64,000 nt of DNA from Candidatus Cloacimonadota bacterium (GTDB lineage: Bacteria; Cloacimonadota; Cloacimonadia; G963667145). The stretch is taken from contig OY762940.1 of the NCBI GenBank assembly GCA_963667255.1, positions 192,001 to 256,000 on the forward strand, written 5' to 3'. Both the position numbers and the translations under genes were made by a program. The notes under the pieces were generated by a model. The model saw nothing but the letters and a program-made list of their open reading frames with translations, ran no database searches and had not been told where the DNA came from. Positions 36,754 to 51,880 of this stretch are shown one piece after another. The stretch's first letter is position 1, and each line of letters starts with the position of its first letter.

Positions 36754-39700
36754 ATGAAGATGAGAAAAAATTTTCTTTTCTCCTTATTTTTCGTCGTTTT
36801 GTTGTTGGCTTGCACCGACTACGAGTCCTTTATGTCCTATAATTATACATACACTGTTTCTGGCTCTGTAAAAACCACAGACAACACTGGATATGAGGGA
36901 GCTATTCTAACTCTCGGAGGAAACACTTCCAAAAGTGCAAAAACCGATAGTAGTGGTGCTTACGCTTTCGAAGATGTGGCAATAGGGAAACATTCCATTA
37001 CCCTCACTGTGCCAGCTAATTACGCTGCCGACACTACCATAAAAAACATCGTGGTAAGTGCCTCAAACAACACTGGGAACGACTTCATTATCGCAAAATA
37101 TTGCACTATATCCGGCACAGTCTCGACCTCAACTGGAACTAAATACAGCGGAGCAACTATAAATTTAAGTGGATTTACCACTGCATCTACTACCACAAAT
37201 AGCGAGGGTTTCTATTCGTTCAGCGTGCCACCAAATAAGACTTATAAAGTATCGTTAGTCGTGCCTACCAATTACATTGCCGAAACCACAGAAAAATCTA
37301 TCTCTCTCGCCTATACAGACAGCACAGGAAACAATTTTACCATTACAAGGACCTACTCTATCTCCGGGACTGTCTCTGGCTATATTGGAACAGCTACCAT
37401 TGAGATTTTGGACTACGCTTCCAACAAAGTGAATAGCAAAACTACCAGTGGAAATGGTGGCACTTACACATTTGCCGGACTCTTGAAAGACAGCACTTAC
37501 ACAGTCAAGCTAACAATCCCAACCAATTGCATCGCTGACGACACAACTGAAACTTACAAAATATCTGACAATGTAACCAAAAACTTTACGCTTTCTCCAA
37601 TCTACTCCATCTCTGGGACGATTAATCTTGCGACTAACAACAATGGAACTTCTGCTTTCACTGGTGGAAGCGTGAGTGTGTCGTTGAGTGGGGCTACAAA
37701 TAAGACAATAAACACAAGCGACGGCTTATACTCATTCAATGGACTTACGACCGGCTCTTACACTGTCACGATTACAAACCCAACCGGATACTACACAAAA
37801 GACACTGTTATCACTATCAATCCTCTGAATGCTGATAAACCAAACCAAAACTTCACTATCAAAAAATTGTATTCTATATCTGGCAAAGTTTCCGGCTACA
37901 ATAGTGCCAATCTTACCTTGAGTGGAGACTCTTCGGCTACTACCACCACAAGCACAGATGGCTCTTACTCATTCACAGGCTTAGTCAATGGCAACTACAA
38001 GGTAACCTTAACCATTCCAACCAATTACATCGCTGACGACACAATCAAAGACATCACCATCAGCGATGCCAATGTCGTAGATAGCAACTTTGTTCTTACA
38101 CCAACCTACTCCATCTCTGGGACTGTTAATCTGGCGACTGCAAGCACTACCTCAGCTTACACGAACAGTGCTGTAACGGTAACCCTAAGCAATGGGAAGA
38201 CAACTACAACCAACACAAGCGACGGATCATACTCATTCAGTGGGCTTTTAGCCGGCTCATACACTGTAACTCTTACAACTCCTACCGGCTACTATTGTGC
38301 TACCACTACAATTAGCGTAAACAATTTGAACGCTGATAAACCAAACCAAGATTTCACTATTGAAAAAACTTACAAAATCTCCGGTAAAGTCACCGGCTAC
38401 ACACAAGCAACTGTCGTTTTGGGTGGAAAATCTACCAGCTCTGTGAAGACTTCTACTACCGACAGCACCTACTCATTCACGGGATTGACAAGTGGCTCTT
38501 ACACTGTGACCCTAACTATCCCTGATGCTACCTACTTTGCAGACGATACGACTGAAGCCATAACCATCACAAATGGCGACATCACCAAAAACTTTGCTCT
38601 CACTAAGACCTACACTATCTCTGGGACGATTAATCTTGCGACTAACAACAATGGAACTTCTGCTTTCACTGGTGGAAGCGTGAGTGTGTCGTTGAGTGGG
38701 GCTACAAATAAGACAATAAACACAAGCGACGGCTTATACTCATTCAATGGACTTACGACCGGCTCTTACACTGTCACGATTACAAACCCAACCGGATACT
38801 ACGCAAAAGACACTGTTATCACTATCAATCCTCTGAACGCTGATAAACCAAACCAAAACTTCACTATCAAAAAATTGTATTCTATATCTGGCAAAGTTTC
38901 CGGCTACAATAGTGCCAATCTTACCTTGAGTGGAGACTCTTCGGCTACTACCACCACAAGCACAGATGGCTCTTACTCATTCGCTAATCTAGTGAATGGC
39001 AACTACAAGGTAACCTTAACCATTCCAACCGGTTACATCGCTGACGACACAATCAAAGACATCACCATCAGCGATGCCAATGTCGTAGATAGCAACTTTG
39101 TTCTTACACCAACCTACTCCATCTCTGGGACTGTTAATCTGGCGACTGCAAGCACTACCTCAGCTTACACGAACAGTGCTGTAACTGTAACCCTAAGCAA
39201 TGGGAAGACGACTACAACCAACACAAGCAATGGCTCATACTCATTCAGTGGGCTTTTAGCCGGCTCTTACACTGTAACTCTTACAACTCCTACCGGCTAC
39301 TATTGTGCTACCACTACAATTAGCGTAAACAATTTGAACGCTGATAAACCAAACCAAGATTTCACTATTGAAAAAACTTACAAAATCTCCGGTAAAGTCA
39401 CCGGCTACACACAAGCAACTGTCGTTTTGGGTGGAAAATCTACCAGCTCTGTGCAGACTTCTGCTACAGACAGCACCTACTCATTCACGGGATTGACAAG
39501 TGGCTCTTACACTGTGACCCTAACTATCCCCGATGCCACCTACTTTGCCGACGATACGACTGAGGCAATAACCATCACAAATAGCGACATCACCAAAAAC
39601 TTTGCTCTAACTAAGACTTACACTATCTCAGGGACTGTCAAACTTGGTGGTAGCAACTTCACTGGAAGTGCCGATGTAACTATCAGTGGTGGCTCACTGA

Positions 39701-41598
39701 CTGCCAGCAAAACCATTCCAACAATAAACGGCTCTTACTCCTTATCTGGCTTGGTCGCTGGCTCATACACTGTAACTCTTACAACTCCTACCGGCTACTA
39801 TTGTGCTGCCACAACAATTAGCGTAAACAATTTGACCGCTGATAAACCAAACCAAGATTTCACTATTGAAAAAACTTACAAAATCTCCGGTAAAGTTTCC
39901 GGCTACACCAGTGCCAATCTTACCTTGAGTGGAGACTCTTCGGCTACTACCACCACAAGCACAGATGGCTCTTACTCATTCACAGGCTTGGTCAATGGCA
40001 ACTACAAGGTAACCTTAACCATTCCAACCAATTACATCGCTGACGACACAATCAAAGACATCACCATCAGCGATGCCAATGTCGTAGATAGCAACTTTGT
40101 TCTTACACAAATCTACTCCATCTCTGGGACGATTAATCTTGCGACTAACAACAATGGAACTTCTGCTTTCACTGGTGGAAGCGTGAGTGTGTCGTTGAGT
40201 GGAGCTACGAACAAAACAATAACCACAAACAACGGCTCGTATTCGTTCGATAATCTTTTAGCCGGCTCTTACACTGTCACGATTACAAACCCAACCGGAT
40301 ACTACACAAAAGACGCTGTTATCACTATCAATCCTCTGAATGCTGATAAACCAAACCAAAACTTCACTATCAAAAAATTGTATTCTATATCTGGCAAAGT
40401 TTCCGGCTACAATAGTGCCAATCTTACCTTGAGTGGAGACTCTTCGGCTACTACCACCACAAGCACAGATGGTTCTTACTCATTCACAGGCTTGGTCAAT
40501 GGCAACTACAAGGTAACCTTAACCATTCCAACCAATTACATCGCTGACGACACAATCAAAGACATCACCATCAGTGATGCCAATGTTGCAAACTCAAATT
40601 TCACTCTTATCCCACCTATCTCTCTATCCGACCTAAAAACTCTAATAGCCAACGATAGTGATGTAACCAATGTCAACACTTCTACCATCACAGACATGTC
40701 TTCACTATTCCAAGGGAAAACTACTTTCAACCAAGACATTAGCAACTGGGATGTCAGCAAAGTAACAAACATGCTCAACATGTTCTCCGGAGCCACCAAA
40801 TTCAATCAAAACATAGGAAACTGGAATGTAAGTAGCGTAACCAATATGAGCTACATGTTCCGAGGCGCTACATCATTCAACCAAGACCTAAATAACTGGA
40901 CAACAACTAATGTAACCAATATGAGCAACATGTTCTTTGAAGCCACCAAATTCAATCAAAATATAGGAAACTGGAATGTAAGTAGCGTAACCGATATGAG
41001 CAACATGTTCCGAGACGCTAAATCATTCAACCAAGACCTAAATAACTGGACAACAACTAATGTAACCAATATGAGCAACATGTTCTATGGAGACACCACC
41101 TTCAATGGTAATATTAGTAACTGGAATGTAAGTAGCGTAACCGATATGAGCAGCATGTTCCAAGACGCTAAATCATTCAACCAAGACCTAAATAACTGGA
41201 CAACAACTAATGTAACCAATATGAGCTACATGTTCTGTAGAGCCACCAACTTCAATGGTAATATTAGTAACTGGAATGTTAGCAAGGTAACCGATATGAC
41301 CTACATGTTCCTAAGAGCTACATCATTCAACAAAGACCTAAATAACTGGATAACAACTAATGTAATCAATATGACAGGAATGTTCTTTGGAGCCACCAAC
41401 TTCAATGGTAATATTAGTAGCTGGGCAGATTGTATAAAAAAAGTAACCACTATGGAAGGAATGTTCTGTAGTGCTACATCATTTAATCAAAACCTTAGTG
41501 GTTGGACGGCTGATAAATTTAACTCAAGTGTAATTCATACAAATTTTGATACAGGAGCAAGTGCTTGGAACAGTGGATACAAACCTACTTTCCCATAA
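36754..41598 (+). CDS. Large surface lipoprotein: tandem Ig-like/prealbumin-fold repeats plus C-terminal DUF285/BspA-like 25-aa repeats
   Basis: Lipobox LLAC; ~80-90 aa repeats YSISG...GSYSF.GL..G.YTVT; C-terminal W.VS.VT.M..MF..A..FN repeats. Confidence 0.85.
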   Translation: MKMRKNFLFSLFFVVLLLACTDYESFMSYNYTYTVSGSVKTTDNTGYEGAILTLGGNTSKSAKTDSSGAYAFEDVAIGKHSITLTVPANYAADTTIKNIVVSASNNTGNDFIIAKYCTISGTVSTSTGTKYSGATINLSGFTTASTTTNSEGFYSFSVPPNKTYKVSLVVPTNYIAETTEKSISLAYTDSTGNNFTITRTYSISGTVSGYIGTATIEILDYASNKVNSKTTSGNGGTYTFAGLLKDSTYTVKLTIPTNCIADDTTETYKISDNVTKNFTLSPIYSISGTINLATNNNGTSAFTGGSVSVSLSGATNKTINTSDGLYSFNGLTTGSYTVTITNPTGYYTKDTVITINPLNADKPNQNFTIKKLYSISGKVSGYNSANLTLSGDSSATTTTSTDGSYSFTGLVNGNYKVTLTIPTNYIADDTIKDITISDANVVDSNFVLTPTYSISGTVNLATASTTSAYTNSAVTVTLSNGKTTTTNTSDGSYSFSGLLAGSYTVTLTTPTGYYCATTTISVNNLNADKPNQDFTIEKTYKISGKVTGYTQATVVLGGKSTSSVKTSTTDSTYSFTGLTSGSYTVTLTIPDATYFADDTTEAITITNGDITKNFALTKTYTISGTINLATNNNGTSAFTGGSVSVSLSGATNKTINTSDGLYSFNGLTTGSYTVTITNPTGYYAKDTVITINPLNADKPNQNFTIKKLYSISGKVSGYNSANLTLSGDSSATTTTSTDGSYSFANLVNGNYKVTLTIPTGYIADDTIKDITISDANVVDSNFVLTPTYSISGTVNLATASTTSAYTNSAVTVTLSNGKTTTTNTSNGSYSFSGLLAGSYTVTLTTPTGYYCATTTISVNNLNADKPNQDFTIEKTYKISGKVTGYTQATVVLGGKSTSSVQTSATDSTYSFTGLTSGSYTVTLTIPDATYFADDTTEAITITNSDITKNFALTKTYTISGTVKLGGSNFTGSADVTISGGSLTASKTIPTINGSYSLSGLVAGSYTVTLTTPTGYYCAATTISVNNLTADKPNQDFTIEKTYKISGKVSGYTSANLTLSGDSSATTTTSTDGSYSFTGLVNGNYKVTLTIPTNYIADDTIKDITISDANVVDSNFVLTQIYSISGTINLATNNNGTSAFTGGSVSVSLSGATNKTITTNNGSYSFDNLLAGSYTVTITNPTGYYTKDAVITINPLNADKPNQNFTIKKLYSISGKVSGYNSANLTLSGDSSATTTTSTDGSYSFTGLVNGNYKVTLTIPTNYIADDTIKDITISDANVANSNFTLIPPISLSDLKTLIANDSDVTNVNTSTITDMSSLFQGKTTFNQDISNWDVSKVTNMLNMFSGATKFNQNIGNWNVSSVTNMSYMFRGATSFNQDLNNWTTTNVTNMSNMFFEATKFNQNIGNWNVSSVTDMSNMFRDAKSFNQDLNNWTTTNVTNMSNMFYGDTTFNGNISNWNVSSVTDMSSMFQDAKSFNQDLNNWTTTNVTNMSYMFCRATNFNGNISNWNVSKVTDMTYMFLRATSFNKDLNNWITTNVINMTGMFFGATNFNGNISSWADCIKKVTTMEGMFCSATSFNQNLSGWTADKFNSSVIHTNFDTGASAWNSGYKPTFP
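37603..39618 (+). repeat. Intragenic 1008-bp near-identical tandem duplication (four-domain block twice)
   Basis: Domain starts 37603/38611, 37870/38878, 38107/39115, 38371/39379. Confidence 0.9.
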
Positions 41599-48698: not shown

Positions 48699-48830
48699 TT
48701 GCTTAGAGGTGACAAAAAGTTCGGCAAGCTGATTTTGGTTCATCCAAATATTGTCAGTTTTGGTATATTAGGCAACCGATGCTTTGCCGTCAGCAGTTTT
48801 ATAGATGATGATGTTTTTTTTAGTATTCAT
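48699..48830 (-). pseudogene. RhuM-family N-terminal remnant with in-frame stop
   Basis: Manual translation MNTKKNIIIYKTADGKASVA*YTKTDNIWMNQNQLAELFVTSKQ, similarity then lost. Confidence 0.6.
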
Positions 48831-48849
48831 TTGTTATCTGTTTACTTTT

Positions 48850-48923
48850 TGCTAATGTTGCAAATAACTGGTGCAAATGGAGCGTAGCGAAATTTGCATC
48901 CGAGTTAATTTGTCCTGTTAGCT
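48850..48923 (-). mobile_element. Integron attC-like site (74 bp), R' box degenerate
   Basis: - strand AGCTAAC...AACTCGGATGCAAATTTCGCTACGCTCCATTTGCACCAGTT...ATTAGCA; imperfect palindrome 30 bp after the ATP-grasp stop. Confidence 0.75.
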
Positions 48924-48953: not shown

Positions 48954-49886
48954 CTATTCACCCATCATTATCTTTGCTAATTGCAAAGATGGCTCTGGGA
49001 ATTTATCATAATTAGGCATACTTCCATATGGATTTATGTCTATTATAATTTCCGTGCCATTCTCATCTAATAAAAAGTCAAAACATAAAAAATTTAGCCT
49101 GAACTTTTTCATCAGTTGCACAAGTCCAGACATTGTTTTTCTGGTACATTTGTAATTTGTAGATAAATATTGGGCTGGACTTTTATCAAAATCATTAATC
49201 TTATCCCTAATGTACACAAAAAGTAATCCTCCGATAATATATCCACGATATTCATTAATTGCCTGTATTTCTTGTTGTAAAAAAGCGACTTTAATATAGG
49301 ATAAATATTTCTCTATACTTTGTACATCAAAAGAGGATGCTGGAAATATTACAGCTATATCTCCATCATCTTCTTCAATTCTAAAATAATTTTTGATATT
49401 TGGTCGCAGGAAATCATTGTTTAGAGAAACGAAACAATTGCCGAGCGCTTTGATCGCCTTTCTCCCATCTAATGGTAAGACGCCCCCTTTTTTTATGATG
49501 AGGTATTCAGCAATATTAACACCTACTGCAAGTGCTTGACTTAACGAAAATGCCCTATTTCTGAGCATCCATGTAGATGCCAAATGATTTATGGAAACTT
49601 CGTCAAATATCAATGACAAAGTTTTATAAAATTCTGTTTCTTCTCGAAGCTCAAACGTTTCTGAATGCGGTGGGATTAAATCATAAGGATATCTGATAAA
49701 AGAAGAACTAAAATCATTGATTATGTATGAAGTCTTTTTATTGCACATGTATAATGAATGAGTGTCTACAGCATTAACATCATCACAATTAATCACAGTA
49801 ATATTGTCTTTCCCAATATCTTTAAATGCCATCTCCAAATTTGACATGGATGTATATGGACATCCGATAATTATCAACCTATTCAT
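48954..49886 (-). CDS. ATP-grasp peptide ligase (RimK/MvdD-like)
   Basis: AIKAL, FLQQEI...EYRGYIIG, FLCFDFLLDENG..IIIDINPYG. Confidence 0.7.
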   Translation of the reverse strand: MNRLIIIGCPYTSMSNLEMAFKDIGKDNITVINCDDVNAVDTHSLYMCNKKTSYIINDFSSSFIRYPYDLIPPHSETFELREETEFYKTLSLIFDEVSINHLASTWMLRNRAFSLSQALAVGVNIAEYLIIKKGGVLPLDGRKAIKALGNCFVSLNNDFLRPNIKNYFRIEEDDGDIAVIFPASSFDVQSIEKYLSYIKVAFLQQEIQAINEYRGYIIGGLLFVYIRDKINDFDKSPAQYLSTNYKCTRKTMSGLVQLMKKFRLNFLCFDFLLDENGTEIIIDINPYGSMPNYDKFPEPSLQLAKIMMGE

Positions 49887-49920
49887 AATGTTTTATATGT
49901 GTGTTTATTCTCCATAAATT

Positions 49921-49966
49921 AAAATAAGGGAACTGGCAACATCTACTAACCAGCTCCAGCTCCCTT
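49921..49966 (-). terminator. Stem-loop with U-tract after the micro-ORF
   Basis: - strand AAGGGAGCTGG...CCAGTTCCCTT-ATTTT. Confidence 0.65.
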
Positions 49967-49973
49967 TATCAAA

Positions 49974-50000
49974 TCAGTCTTTCCAGATTTTACAGCACAT
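49974..50000 (-). CDS. Putative 8-aa RiPP precursor MCCKIWKD (not in ORF track)
   Basis: AAGGAGGT-6 nt-ATG TGC TGT AAA ATC TGG AAA GAC TGA, between radical SAM and ATP-grasp genes. Confidence 0.65.
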   Translation of the reverse strand: MCCKIWKD

Positions 50001-50016
50001 ATTTCTACCTCCTTTA

Positions 50017-50990
50017 TTAATCTTGATTATATATTGCTTTCTCAGCAATACAGTAACCTGTGCAAGATTTGTCTATTCGACTCTGACAAGTTTTGCACAG
50101 TGGGAGAGAGCATACTAAATATTTCAATCTTTCTATTTCCTTGTTATTAACTATAAATTCTTTTGCTTCAGAAAAAGAATTAAAGTCAGTTATTTTTTTA
50201 TCTGTTAAATTGTAAAAAGGACATGAGGCAATCGATAGGTCAGGATTAATGAGAAGATTTCCACATTCATTATATGATAATCCTTTTGAATGTAAATCGT
50301 AACTATTAATTTCTTCTGATGTAAAGAAACATTTCGGAAAAGGACAATCAAAAAGAACATTCAGCCCAATTGACTCAACTGCTCTTATATAAGATAAAAG
50401 CTGGGGTTTATGTGACTCAATTTCTTTTATTGATATATATTTGTTTTTTTTTCGATTGATGGTCGCGCAAGATCTAAACGAATTTCGCGAATATTGCTGT
50501 ACTTTTTGGCTATGCCAAGAATATTTTCAATACTTTGGTCGATTTTGTAAATTGTACAAGAAAGCAAAACATCAATTTTCAGATTTTCCAATGTTGCCAA
50601 ATTCTCTAAAATTAGATTTTTTTCTGTAATCGTATAAGTGTCGAATAATGTAATATTGGCACATATGTTCTGGATATTTTTAAAAGAAGATAAGATGTCT
50701 CTTTTAAATAATAAATTACTCAACATATTTATATGAAAATTCATATCATTTGCCAACTTTAACAAATGAATAAAATTCCTATGAATTGTCGGTTCCCCAC
50801 CTAATAAAGTTAAGGTGTTAATATTTTGAAACTTTAGCCATAGCAACAAGCTATTGAAATCTGGTATCGATATTTCAGCATCGCGAATTGTCATGCTTGT
50901 TTGAAAACAGAATTCACATGACCTATTGCACTTATTCGTAAGTAGAAGTTTAGGACTCATCATAAAATGATACCTCGAAGTCCAATTCAT
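50017..50990 (-). CDS. Radical SAM/SPASM enzyme, frameshifted at A9 run (50444-50452); 324 aa if one A is added
   Basis: CNRSCEFC and GGEPT in 5' frame; -1 frame continues open with DCPFPKC, CGNLLINPDLSIASC, CKTC-x7-CTGYC to TAA at 50017. Confidence 0.8.
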
Positions 50991-51235
50991 TTAACATAAC
51001 CCTCATCTTTTATCCTTGTTTATAGACTTGTATATGTTGCTCATATTGGCAATCTAAACTAAAAATCGACAAGTTTTTTCTCCAAAATATTACCGCTACC
51101 CTCTGCATAAACTCAATTATATTTATTTCTTCTTTCATCAAGTTTCTAACCTAAATAAGATTTGATTTTTTTCAGTCAAAGCATCTTTGTGTTCGCAGGA
51201 TTGCAGTTTTATAAATAATGGTGTTTTTTTAGTAT

Positions 51236-51880
51236 TCATTTACCTTCCCTCACTCTCCTCACAAACTCCTCTATCAACTTCTCGCTTTTCACTTCGTCTT
51301 CTTCCACTCCACTGCTCACATCTACCGCCCAAGGTTGCAAGGTTTTTATTCCACTAATTACATTATCGGCGGTCAGACCGCCTGCCAAGACAAGCGGACA
51401 AGGAAAATCTATGCTCTTTGCCAACTGCCAATCAAAAATTTGCCCCAAGCCTCCGAACTGCTTTGCGGAAAATTTATCCAACAAGACAGCAGAAATATTT
51501 TTGGAAAAGCTACTCACATCTGGCAAACGATTTCCCCCAATTCGACAAGCTTTCCAAATAGAAACTCCCTTGCCGATTTTTTTTTGTAGCTCGTCAATGT
51601 AAGCGGAATCCTCATCGCCGTGCAATTGCACAACTTTCAGTCCGCAAGCAATTGCCTTTATGATGGTGAAATGCTCTTCGTTCACGAAAACCCCCACAGG
51701 GATAATTCGCTTGTCCAGTGCGAAAATCAACTCGGAAAGCAAAGCCAAAGAAACCTGCCGTTTGCTCCTTGCCAAGACAAATCCCGCAAAATCGGGCAAA
51801 TATTTGTTCAGAATTTGCACATCGGTAGCAGATTTTATTCCGCAAATTTTTATCTTGGTTTTAGGAATTTGGCTCATCAT
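51236..51880 (-). CDS. trpF: Phosphoribosylanthranilate isomerase
   Basis: IKICGI, VQLHGDE, LAGGL, DVSSGVE. Confidence 0.93.
   Translation of the reverse strand: MMSQIPKTKIKICGIKSATDVQILNKYLPDFAGFVLARSKRQVSLALLSELIFALDKRIIPVGVFVNEEHFTIIKAIACGLKVVQLHGDEDSAYIDELQKKIGKGVSIWKACRIGGNRLPDVSSFSKNISAVLLDKFSAKQFGGLGQIFDWQLAKSIDFPCPLVLAGGLTADNVISGIKTLQPWAVDVSSGVEEDEVKSEKLIEEFVRRVREGK

Follow-up and report, generated by a model that had tools for sequence, protein, structure and literature searches.

A conserved micro-gene paired with an ATP-grasp ligase: a candidate minimal family of ribosomally made, modified peptides

Introduction

Can an open reading frame (ORF) of eight codons be a gene, and if so, which enzyme does its peptide serve? 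This question is raised by a locus in a 64,000-nt stretch of the genome of a Candidatus Cloacimonadota bacterium (contig OY762940.1, positions 192,001 to 256,000; the whole stretch is called the window below), where an ORF for the octapeptide MCCKIWKD lies between a radical SAM gene and a gene for an ATP-grasp ligase. The original prediction, made from the letters of this stretch, read the three as a new minimal system for a peptide made on the ribosome and modified after translation (RiPP), in which a nearly leaderless precursor is cyclized by both enzymes. By comparing the locus with its homologs, we find that the micro-ORF is real, that it forms a conserved pair with the ligase, and that the radical SAM gene belongs to the system and is optional, the conserved core being peptide and ligase. 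The gene pair is strongly supported, and with its predicted chemistry it makes a candidate new minimal RiPP family.

Results

The micro-ORF is conserved beside homologs of the ligase

Coordinates are positions in the window, and the unit lies on its minus strand, where the order is radical SAM gene (in two frames), Shine-Dalgarno (SD) sequence, micro-ORF, hairpin, and ATP-grasp ORF. The core features are the following.

50007 to 50014, minus strand: SD sequence AAGGAGGT, 6 nt before the ATG, read from the sequence
49974 to 50000, minus strand: micro-ORF for the precursor MCCKIWKD, read from the sequence, whose motif recurs in all 16 loci that could be evaluated, the window among them
49926 to 49966, minus strand: stem-loop with a U-rich tail in the gap between precursor and ligase genes, resembling a terminator or stabilizer, from folding (z ≤ -3 in 14 of 16 loci)
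48954 to 49886, minus strand: ATP-grasp ligase of 310 amino acids, a new clade related to graspetide synthetases by profile, fold, and invariant residues

The perfect SD and its 6-nt spacer are as originally described, leading to an ATG at 50000 that opens MCCKIWKD and a stop at 49974; the gap between the SD and the stop of the radical SAM 3' frame at 50017 is 2 nt, not the 3 nt first given. Taken alone, a strong SD ahead of a short ORF is weak evidence (5 of the 23 other AAGGAGG-plus-ATG sites in the genome open ORFs of at most 13 amino acids), and chance is removed as an explanation because the micro-ORF is conserved beside ligase homologs. Two collection scans returned 22 loci with such homologs (L001 to L022). 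Left out of the precursor count were L019, which equals L005, L022, a short stop-ridden remnant without a precursor, and L003, L004, L006, L009, and L013, which start inside the ligase gene or within 64 nt of it and in which the motif was found nowhere else. All 16 evaluable loci (15 distinct loci with enough flanking DNA, and the window) carry an ORF of 6 to 10 codons that ends in [K/A][I/V]W[K/Q]D-stop, together with a hairpin. The peptides are MCCKIWKD (window), MSRAIWKD, MYSKIWKD, MTMEKIWKD, MKGAIWQD, MAIWQD (twice, in L008 and L020), MKRRKKIWKD (with a GTG start), MAVWKD, MAIWKD (twice), MRKIWQD, MTLSAIWQD, MINKVWKD, MANKIWKD, and MVYSKIWQD. The Trp, the Asp, and the position of the stop are invariant, and the codons vary synonymously (three for Ile, two for Asp, and three different stops). 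Within L001 to L022 the motif was matched 16 times, once on a duplicate contig and always linked to the ligase, where 0.48 matches would be expected from its 4 occurrences in the 1.59-Mb genome of the window, scaled to 190 kb of loci. We conclude that the micro-ORF is real, and it is predicted to be translated.

Scanning homologous loci for an SD followed by a short ORF rich in Cys, Lys, Trp, and Asp had been proposed with the original prediction. The ORF was found everywhere that it could be evaluated, and the case named there as adverse, homologous loci lacking a similar micro-ORF, did not arise; GGAGG precedes only 7 of the 16 precursors and Cys occurs in only 1. Among the 9 precursors without GGAGG, 5 are from Patescibacteria, Uhrbacteria, or Saccharibacteria (L005 by way of an identical Patescibacteria contig), and many bacteria of the Patescibacteria type do not use SD sites. 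The micro-ORF lies 5' of the ligase gene in 15 of 16 loci, at a distance of 25 to 138 nt. The remaining locus, L016, has an intact MAIWKD gene with its hairpin on the opposite strand, convergent with and downstream of the ligase and an oxygenase gene, and no long ORF follows it. Three motif matches in whole genomes that are not linked to a ligase had neither an SD nor a significant hairpin (z of 0.2, 1.3, and -0.7). Two matches in IMG/VR to the pattern of the 6-residue genes were rejected as chance: no ligase lies within 1.5 kb of them, and their downstream folds reach -10.6 kcal/mol, compared with -14 to -25 at linked loci.

The ligase is related to graspetide synthetases

A word-indexed search found 46 ligase relatives, and among representatives at 50% identity 42 were found at E ≤ 1e-30, followed by a sharp fall-off; by these searches the clade is small and distinct. 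Pfam returned no named family, and NCBIfam returned weak matches to graspetide synthetases, far below their cut-offs (TIGR04187 weakly in 32 of the 46 members; TIGR04192 at 13 bits against a cut-off of 230). When the family profile was compared with the PDB, the top five entries were MdnC, AMdnB, CdnC, MdnB, and PsnB. A structure model of the ligase (predicted local distance difference test score, pLDDT, of 89.7) ranked the same graspetide enzymes and PruB first, followed by synapsin, ArgX, and RimK. Nine residues are invariant in the 46 sequences (R65, K146, Q204, E212, R214, D234, D270, D283, and N285), and six of them (Q204, E212, R214, D234, D270, and N285) align with motifs of MdnC, AMdnB, and PsnB. 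R214 aligns with the Arg motif of PsnB, whose Arg recognizes the ring-forming carboxylate, and the FDKS segment aligns with its D(F/W)R loop, here DFR (bioRxiv 10.1101/2021.03.09.434688). The modelled fold thus places the ligase in the graspetide-synthetase lineage, at the level of fold and lineage only and below curated cut-offs, and the enzyme is predicted to be active and to phosphorylate a carboxylate. The pairing of a nearly leaderless micro-precursor with a graspetide-type ligase, as originally proposed, is borne out in that the pair is conserved and the fold relatives are graspetide synthetases.

Two ligase loci deserve separate mention. In L020 (8001-8920, Uhrbacteria), the ligase is split into two frames and the MAIWQD gene and hairpin are intact. 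A relative of the genome that carries L018 holds a distant ATP-grasp gene (L058, at G243:C3:9971-10288) with an E value of 1e-10 to the family profile.

A proposed lactam between the terminal Asp and an amine four residues before it

The terminal Asp is the only conserved acid of the peptides (16/16). Ser, Thr, or Lys occurs in 14 of the 16, with no invariant donor position, and a classical graspetide ring from side chain to side chain cannot be general because the two MAIWQD peptides have none of these residues. A K7-D8 lactam is likewise excluded as a general rule, since the residue corresponding to K7 is Gln in 6 of 16, and with Cys in a single precursor the earlier notion that almost every residue is reactive does not stand. 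Position -4, counted back from the Asp, holds Lys in half of the 16 peptides and Ala in the other half (8 each): Ala occupies it, as residue 2, in 5 of 5 6-residue peptides, and Lys in 8 of 11 longer ones (Fisher's exact test, one-sided p = 0.013 and two-sided p = 0.026, with related loci treated as independent). The sister ligases of L008 and L019 (98% support in a Shimodaira-Hasegawa-like approximate likelihood-ratio test, SH-aLRT, on a quick tree) differ exactly in having Ala versus Lys at -4. This pattern, with the sister pair, suggests a five-residue lactam between an amine at -4 and the Asp.

In the mechanism that we propose, the ligase would activate the terminal Asp by phosphorylating one of its carboxylates and form an intramolecular lactam, with the amine four residues upstream as the most likely nucleophile. 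In peptides with Lys at -4 this would be the Lys side chain (K4 in the window), and in the 6-residue MA[I/V]W[K/Q]D peptides it would be the N-terminal amine of Ala, exposed by removal of Met, a reaction that is established where the second residue is small. The model of a -4 amine fits 13 of the 16 peptides. Closure through an N-terminal amine would be without precedent that we have seen, because the available text of PMC12291112 does not mention such a donor. That the peptide is the substrate of the adjacent ligase we consider highly probable; that the bond is an intramolecular lactam we favor by a little over even chances; and the exact -4 register is a tentative assignment, somewhat short of an even chance. 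The picture as a whole is of a mobile two-gene unit in which the ligase probably acts on the W-[K/Q]-D-terminated peptide and closes it to a lactam, and we lean slightly toward accepting it.

Several observations weigh against this picture. The ligase shares only 9-17% identity with graspetide synthetases, with template modelling (TM) scores of 0.56-0.68 and matches far below the NCBIfam cut-offs, and it carries Arg and Asp at positions that are Lys and Glu in AMdnB. Characterized graspetide synthetases need a leader for activation, as PsnB does (bioRxiv 10.1101/2021.03.09.434688), and the precursors here have none. Three peptides (MSRAIWKD, MKGAIWQD, and MTLSAIWQD) would offer no free amine at -4 without trimming, the test of the -4 pattern counts related loci as independent, and the ligase tree comes from a quick search and has many open forks. 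The start codons of micro-ORFs lacking an SD are placed by prediction, the convergent arrangement is known from one locus (L016), and no exporter or protease is conserved.

A hairpin follows every precursor gene

The stem-loop with a U-tract that had been noted ahead of the ATP-grasp gene is confirmed by folding: the window hairpin (49966-49926) has a centroid energy of -20.2 kcal/mol, with z of -2.2 on 81 nt and -4.1 on 60 nt, and 6 of the 8 nt behind it are U. A hairpin is present in 16 of 16 loci, and it is kept though its sequence is not (mean identity 0.34 versus 0.77). Its G-C core begins 1-18 nt past the stop, and in 11 of 16 loci at least 5 U follow in the next 8 nt. A promoter scan performed at chance level (16 versus 14.7), and its terminator rule missed the window hairpin. 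In the proposed mechanism, the role of the hairpin would be to hold the precursor transcript at a higher level than that of the ligase.

The radical SAM gene is an optional partner

Three features describe the radical SAM gene upstream of the micro-ORF.

50427 to 50990, minus strand: radical SAM 5' part with CxxxCxxC, PF04055 above cut-off, likely true start near 50963
50017 to 50448, minus strand: radical SAM 3' part in another frame, with eight Cys that do not vary within the clade, a SPASM-like feature in pattern only
50444 to 50452, minus strand: run of nine As (A9) at the frameshift, one base fewer than in a close relative

The PF04055 match identifies a radical SAM core. CxxxCxxC stands at residues 21, 25, and 28 of the ORF from 50990, and intact homologs start about 10 codons later, so that their motif begins at residue 11. 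So close to the N-terminus, the motif leaves no room for a RiPP recognition element (RRE), in agreement with the original prediction; neither an RRE domain nor the leader-bearing precursor typical of SPASM maturases was found, the precursor being 8 amino acids long. Eight C-terminal Cys are invariant in the clade, yet no SPASM model of Pfam or NCBIfam matches. The best weak matches include the peptide maturases SkfB and WgkB, with no family cut-off reached, and the AlphaFold2 model is too poor in the C-terminal region to interpret (mean pLDDT 60).

The window gene is split by a one-base frameshift at the A9 run, and its frame is not intact. Its homolog P0085 from Desulfosarcina ovata is continuous and 94% identical to the 5' part over 172 amino acids and 93% to the 3' part. 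The frameshift also occurs in contigs of the runs X1/X2 (depth 39; possibly the source sample), and an X5 contig has one extra base. Because of the continuous D. ovata homolog and the extra base in X5, the break is most likely a recent one-base deletion; a sequencing error is less likely, since the independently assembled X1/X2 contigs agree, if possibly from the source sample. Runs of nine As can allow slippage, and rescue of the window gene in this way is possible. As the copy is broken, the window product would likely be the form made by the ligase only, unless slippage rescues some radical SAM enzyme. In contigs of X3/X5 and X3/X4, the match to the radical SAM gene breaks off at 50283 and 50533 and other sequence follows, a hint that close relatives also carry interrupted copies.

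The clade has four database members besides that of the window, and all five appear to be linked to the ligase: two in DNA, one by locus tags, and two suggestively. In L003 an intact gene, 47-51% identical to the two halves in the window, stands right after the ligase gene. Adjacent locus tags in D. ovata subsp. sediminis mark the radical SAM gene DSCO28_21260 and the ligase gene DSCO28_21250, whose product is 95% identical to the window ligase; the annotation there already holds a nearly identical cluster in which the radical SAM gene is continuous. The last two are in records of the same size as ligase-bearing ones (19954 and 6307 bases), which is suggestive only. Of the 20 distinct loci whose ligase gene is real, L003 alone has a radical SAM homolog.

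Four loci have, instead of a radical SAM gene, a 2-oxoglutarate (2OG)-Fe(II) oxygenase-like gene that overlaps the 3' end of the ligase gene. The four are mutually homologous and have an invariant HxD...H...R set; three further relatives, without an assigned position, were found. Oxidation of a Lys isopeptide by a 2OG oxygenase has a precedent in the graspetide corallotide (PMC13097080). At the core of the unit are two genes, to which interchangeable tailoring enzymes are added, the clade-specific oxidative enzymes traveling with the pair; either enzyme would be an optional extra that oxidizes the peptide, the tailoring roles being predicted from sequence. In L017 (9590-13623), the ligase and oxygenase genes are followed on the same strand by a glycosyltransferase-28-like gene, a GT1/DUF2264 fusion, and a TauD-family gene, possibly a larger tailoring cluster.

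Weighing other readings of the pair

Might all three genes be required after all, with crosslinks of the Cys-thioether or Lys-Trp type installed by the radical SAM enzyme and D8 joined by the ligase in a lactam to K4 or K7, so that the octapeptide is cyclized more than once? The tiny radical SAM clade is linked to the ligase, its weak best matches include SkfB and WgkB, and the only precursor that contains Cys adjoins a radical SAM gene. That association rests on one case, the window, however, and the copy there is frameshifted; most loci have no radical SAM gene, K7 is not conserved, and neither a family cut-off nor a SPASM hidden Markov model (HMM) match was reached. Cyclization by both enzymes as a general rule is accordingly abandoned, and an obligatory three-gene system seems to us very unlikely, though this reading could still apply to the sub-lineage of the window alone. 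A more serious alternative concerns the hairpin: the peptide could be a cis-acting leader or arrest peptide, the ribosome paused at its stop masking the 5' arm of the terminator and so allowing read-through into the ligase gene, which would then have another, true substrate. The 5' position of the micro-ORF in 15 of 16 loci, the nearness of hairpin core and U-rich tail to the stop, and conservation anchored at the stop, as in the arrest peptide TnaC, would all fit such control. In L016, however, the micro-ORF is downstream on the opposite strand, with no long ORF to control, and not 5' on the same strand as control would demand. Antiterminator pairing is absent in 13 of 16 loci (pairing probability ≤ 0.01; the exceptions are L012 with 0.24, L020 with 0.59, and L016 with 0.99), there is a single Trp and no run of control codons, the window micro-ORF sits in mid-unit behind the radical SAM gene, and the nearby trp operon is incidental. 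We regard this reading as unlikely, and we keep it in play at that level because L016 is a single case.

If the peptide is a substrate, the activated Asp might instead be joined to an outside amine, of a metabolite or of a Lys in a host or phage protein, giving a tag or a Trojan-horse-type conjugate. An intermolecular bond would suit MAIWQD, which has no Ser, Thr, or Lys, and the fixing of the C-terminal end only while total length varies from 6 to 10. It would also suit the absence of a conserved exporter or protease among the loci compared and neighborhoods that often hold restriction, helicase, and nuclease genes and integrases. In the fold search, RimK and ArgX/LysX rank closely behind the graspetide enzymes. 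Microcin C is made from a short precursor modified at its C-terminus. The fosfazinomycin precursor is another such precedent (preprint PMC13622209). Against this, the nearest relatives of the ligase are macrocyclases, no PADLOC model is matched by the ligase, the loci compared share no acceptor gene, and the Lys/Ala pattern at -4 would be left unexplained. We consider an intermolecular bond improbable, if not negligibly so, and continue to prefer the intramolecular lactam.

The unit is mobile and arrived recently in the window genome

The following features flank the unit.

48850 to 48923, minus strand: attC-like imperfect palindrome of 74 nt after the ligase gene, distal core box ATT instead of GTT
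48793 to 48832, no strand assigned: 40-nt direct repeat, copy 1, 90% identical, flanking the low-GC insert
51203 to 51241, no strand assigned: direct repeat, copy 2, flanking the low-GC insert

The GC content of the 2 kb is 30-32%, against 39% genome-wide. The ligase is missing from 5 genomes of the same genus and 226 others of the phylum (0/231), and in the closest genome (G204) an unrelated gene occupies the site. The unit is a recent arrival in the window genome, as shown by its low GC, the flanking repeats, its absence from relatives, and the unrelated gene in the closest genome. That it lies behind the trp operon is incidental for the same reason, and a functional link to that operon was rejected, given the same-genus genomes without the ligase and the unrelated gene of the closest one. 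As originally noted, no ORF for a protease or exporter lies within the 2.4-kb unit.

A box-and-fold scan, which uses no curated attC model, found attC-like elements after the ligase gene in the window and L006 and farther off in L001 and L010; it found none in L002, L003, L004, L008, L009, and L012, and a match in L014 is doubtful. The element in the window has no second copy in the genome, and similar stretches occur in up to 18 other X1/X2 contigs. L014 adjoins integrase genes. Carriers are single genomes within their orders, and samples of 1, 4, 35, 4, 401, 162, and 9 related genomes yielded the known carriers only, plus the weak match in G243. The unit is patchy and mobile. No relative of the ligase was found in IMG/VR, plasmids, or phage records, and none of the oxygenase in IMG/VR. 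From the neighborhood, we would guess at a role of the product in conflict or signaling.

Discussion

Of the known systems, the graspetides (microviridin, MdnB/MdnC; AMdnB; chryseoviridin, CdnC; plesiocin, PsnB; PruB; and corallotide) come closest. Their synthetases are the nearest solved relatives of the ligase and share its ATP-grasp fold, the carboxylate-recognizing Arg and the position of the D(F/W)R-type loop are kept in the window ligase, the precursor gene stands beside the ligase gene in both, and some graspetide groups have optional SPASM-type or 2OG-Fe(II) partners. The peptide-ligase unit likely works like a graspetide system. In graspetides, however, an N-terminal leader with PFFARFL or Phhx(1,2)h, often with GG, precedes the core (PMC8939145), whereas the precursors here, of 6-10 amino acids, lack a leader, a GG site, and the Phhx(1,2)h motif; they have a single acid, as their last residue, and 2 of 16 have no Ser, Thr, or Lys donor. 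None of the 16 has a leader-plus-core build, and for that reason we do not file the unit as a graspetide. A new leaderless RiPP class, with a leader-free, graspetide-derived ligase, a Lys or N-terminal donor at the same position, swappable tailoring, and spread by integron cassettes and islands (through Patescibacteria, Bacteroidota, Pseudomonadota, and sulfate reducers), is in our view a reasonable prospect whose chances fall just below even.

For size, the nearest precedent is the biarylitides (bytA, MRYYH, with the P450 BytO; PMC12002111), which are also minimal two-gene units with an SD-led micro-ORF directly upstream of the enzyme, an optional extra tailoring gene, and no dedicated protease. 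They differ in making a P450 biaryl crosslink behind a 2-residue leader, where our unit has a ligase of the ATP-grasp type and peptides ending in W-x-D. Grasp-with-SPASM systems (TIGR04192; Makarova branch 5, group 14; PMC8939145) also join an ATP-grasp to a radical SAM/SPASM gene, but they have a cluster-23 protein and longer, GG-type precursors, and a shared gene of this kind was absent from the neighbors compared here. Very short ribosomal peptides are also the starting point of microcin C (mccA of 21 bp; PMC12002111) and of fosfazinomycin (PMC13622209). Activation there is likewise at the C-terminal residue, but by ThiF-type or asparagine-synthetase-like enzymes that attach a nucleotide or a hydrazine-phosphonate; no such genes recur at our loci.

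In branch 2 of Makarova 2022, which is from CPR (candidate phyla radiation) bacteria, most precursors were not found and were considered possibly too small (PMC8939145); our ligase may be identical with that branch, which we compared by its description. The available text of 11 supplements of that study, the enzyme FASTA and trees apart, contains none of the motifs IWKD, IWQD, VWKD, and RYPYDL, and the D. ovata and Flavivirga accessions are not among the matches listed in the available part of the Carter 2026 dataset (PMC13097080). A full-text literature search, with most subscription papers outside its scope, returned no description of the peptide-ligase family.

If correct, the proposal would show that graspetide-type enzymes can recognize a substrate by W-x-D alone, with no leader, and it would provide a very small cyclization or ligation tag and a minimal-tag peptide cyclase. 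Precursor genes of 21 bp would be among the smallest known, and genes of 21-33 bp fall below the reach of ORF callers, which would explain precursors "missing" at ATP-grasp loci in earlier surveys. The unit would also be a candidate small-molecule pathway in Patescibacteria with reduced genomes.

Other observations at the insertion site and in the window

At the corresponding site in G204 (L059:1671-5015) lies a gene for a 1114-amino-acid protein with repeated units, pointing to a variable spot; the units are presumably C-type-lectin-like repeats and the end FGE-sulfatase-like. Both flanking repeats (48832-48680 and 51241-51190, minus strand) start an ORF MNTKK...IIYKT, and the copy after the ligase has an internal stop; we take the ORF begun there to resemble a RhuM-family N-terminus. 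The insert may have split or duplicated a gene start of this kind. An apparent joint of 48837 to 51113 in contig matches is probably due to the flanking repeats mapping onto each other. A 66-nt stretch at 51003-51068, upstream of the radical SAM gene, is common to other contigs in several runs and could be a recombination or promoter element. By eye, tRNA-like sequences were seen near the unit in L007 (2790-2860), L014 (after 9499), and L015 (after 8948), as expected for island insertion sites. Elsewhere in the window, on the plus strand, 36754-41598 encodes a lipoprotein-like ORF of 1614 amino acids; its interior holds long repeats, and its C-terminus a repeat region that we take to be of BspA/DUF285 appearance.

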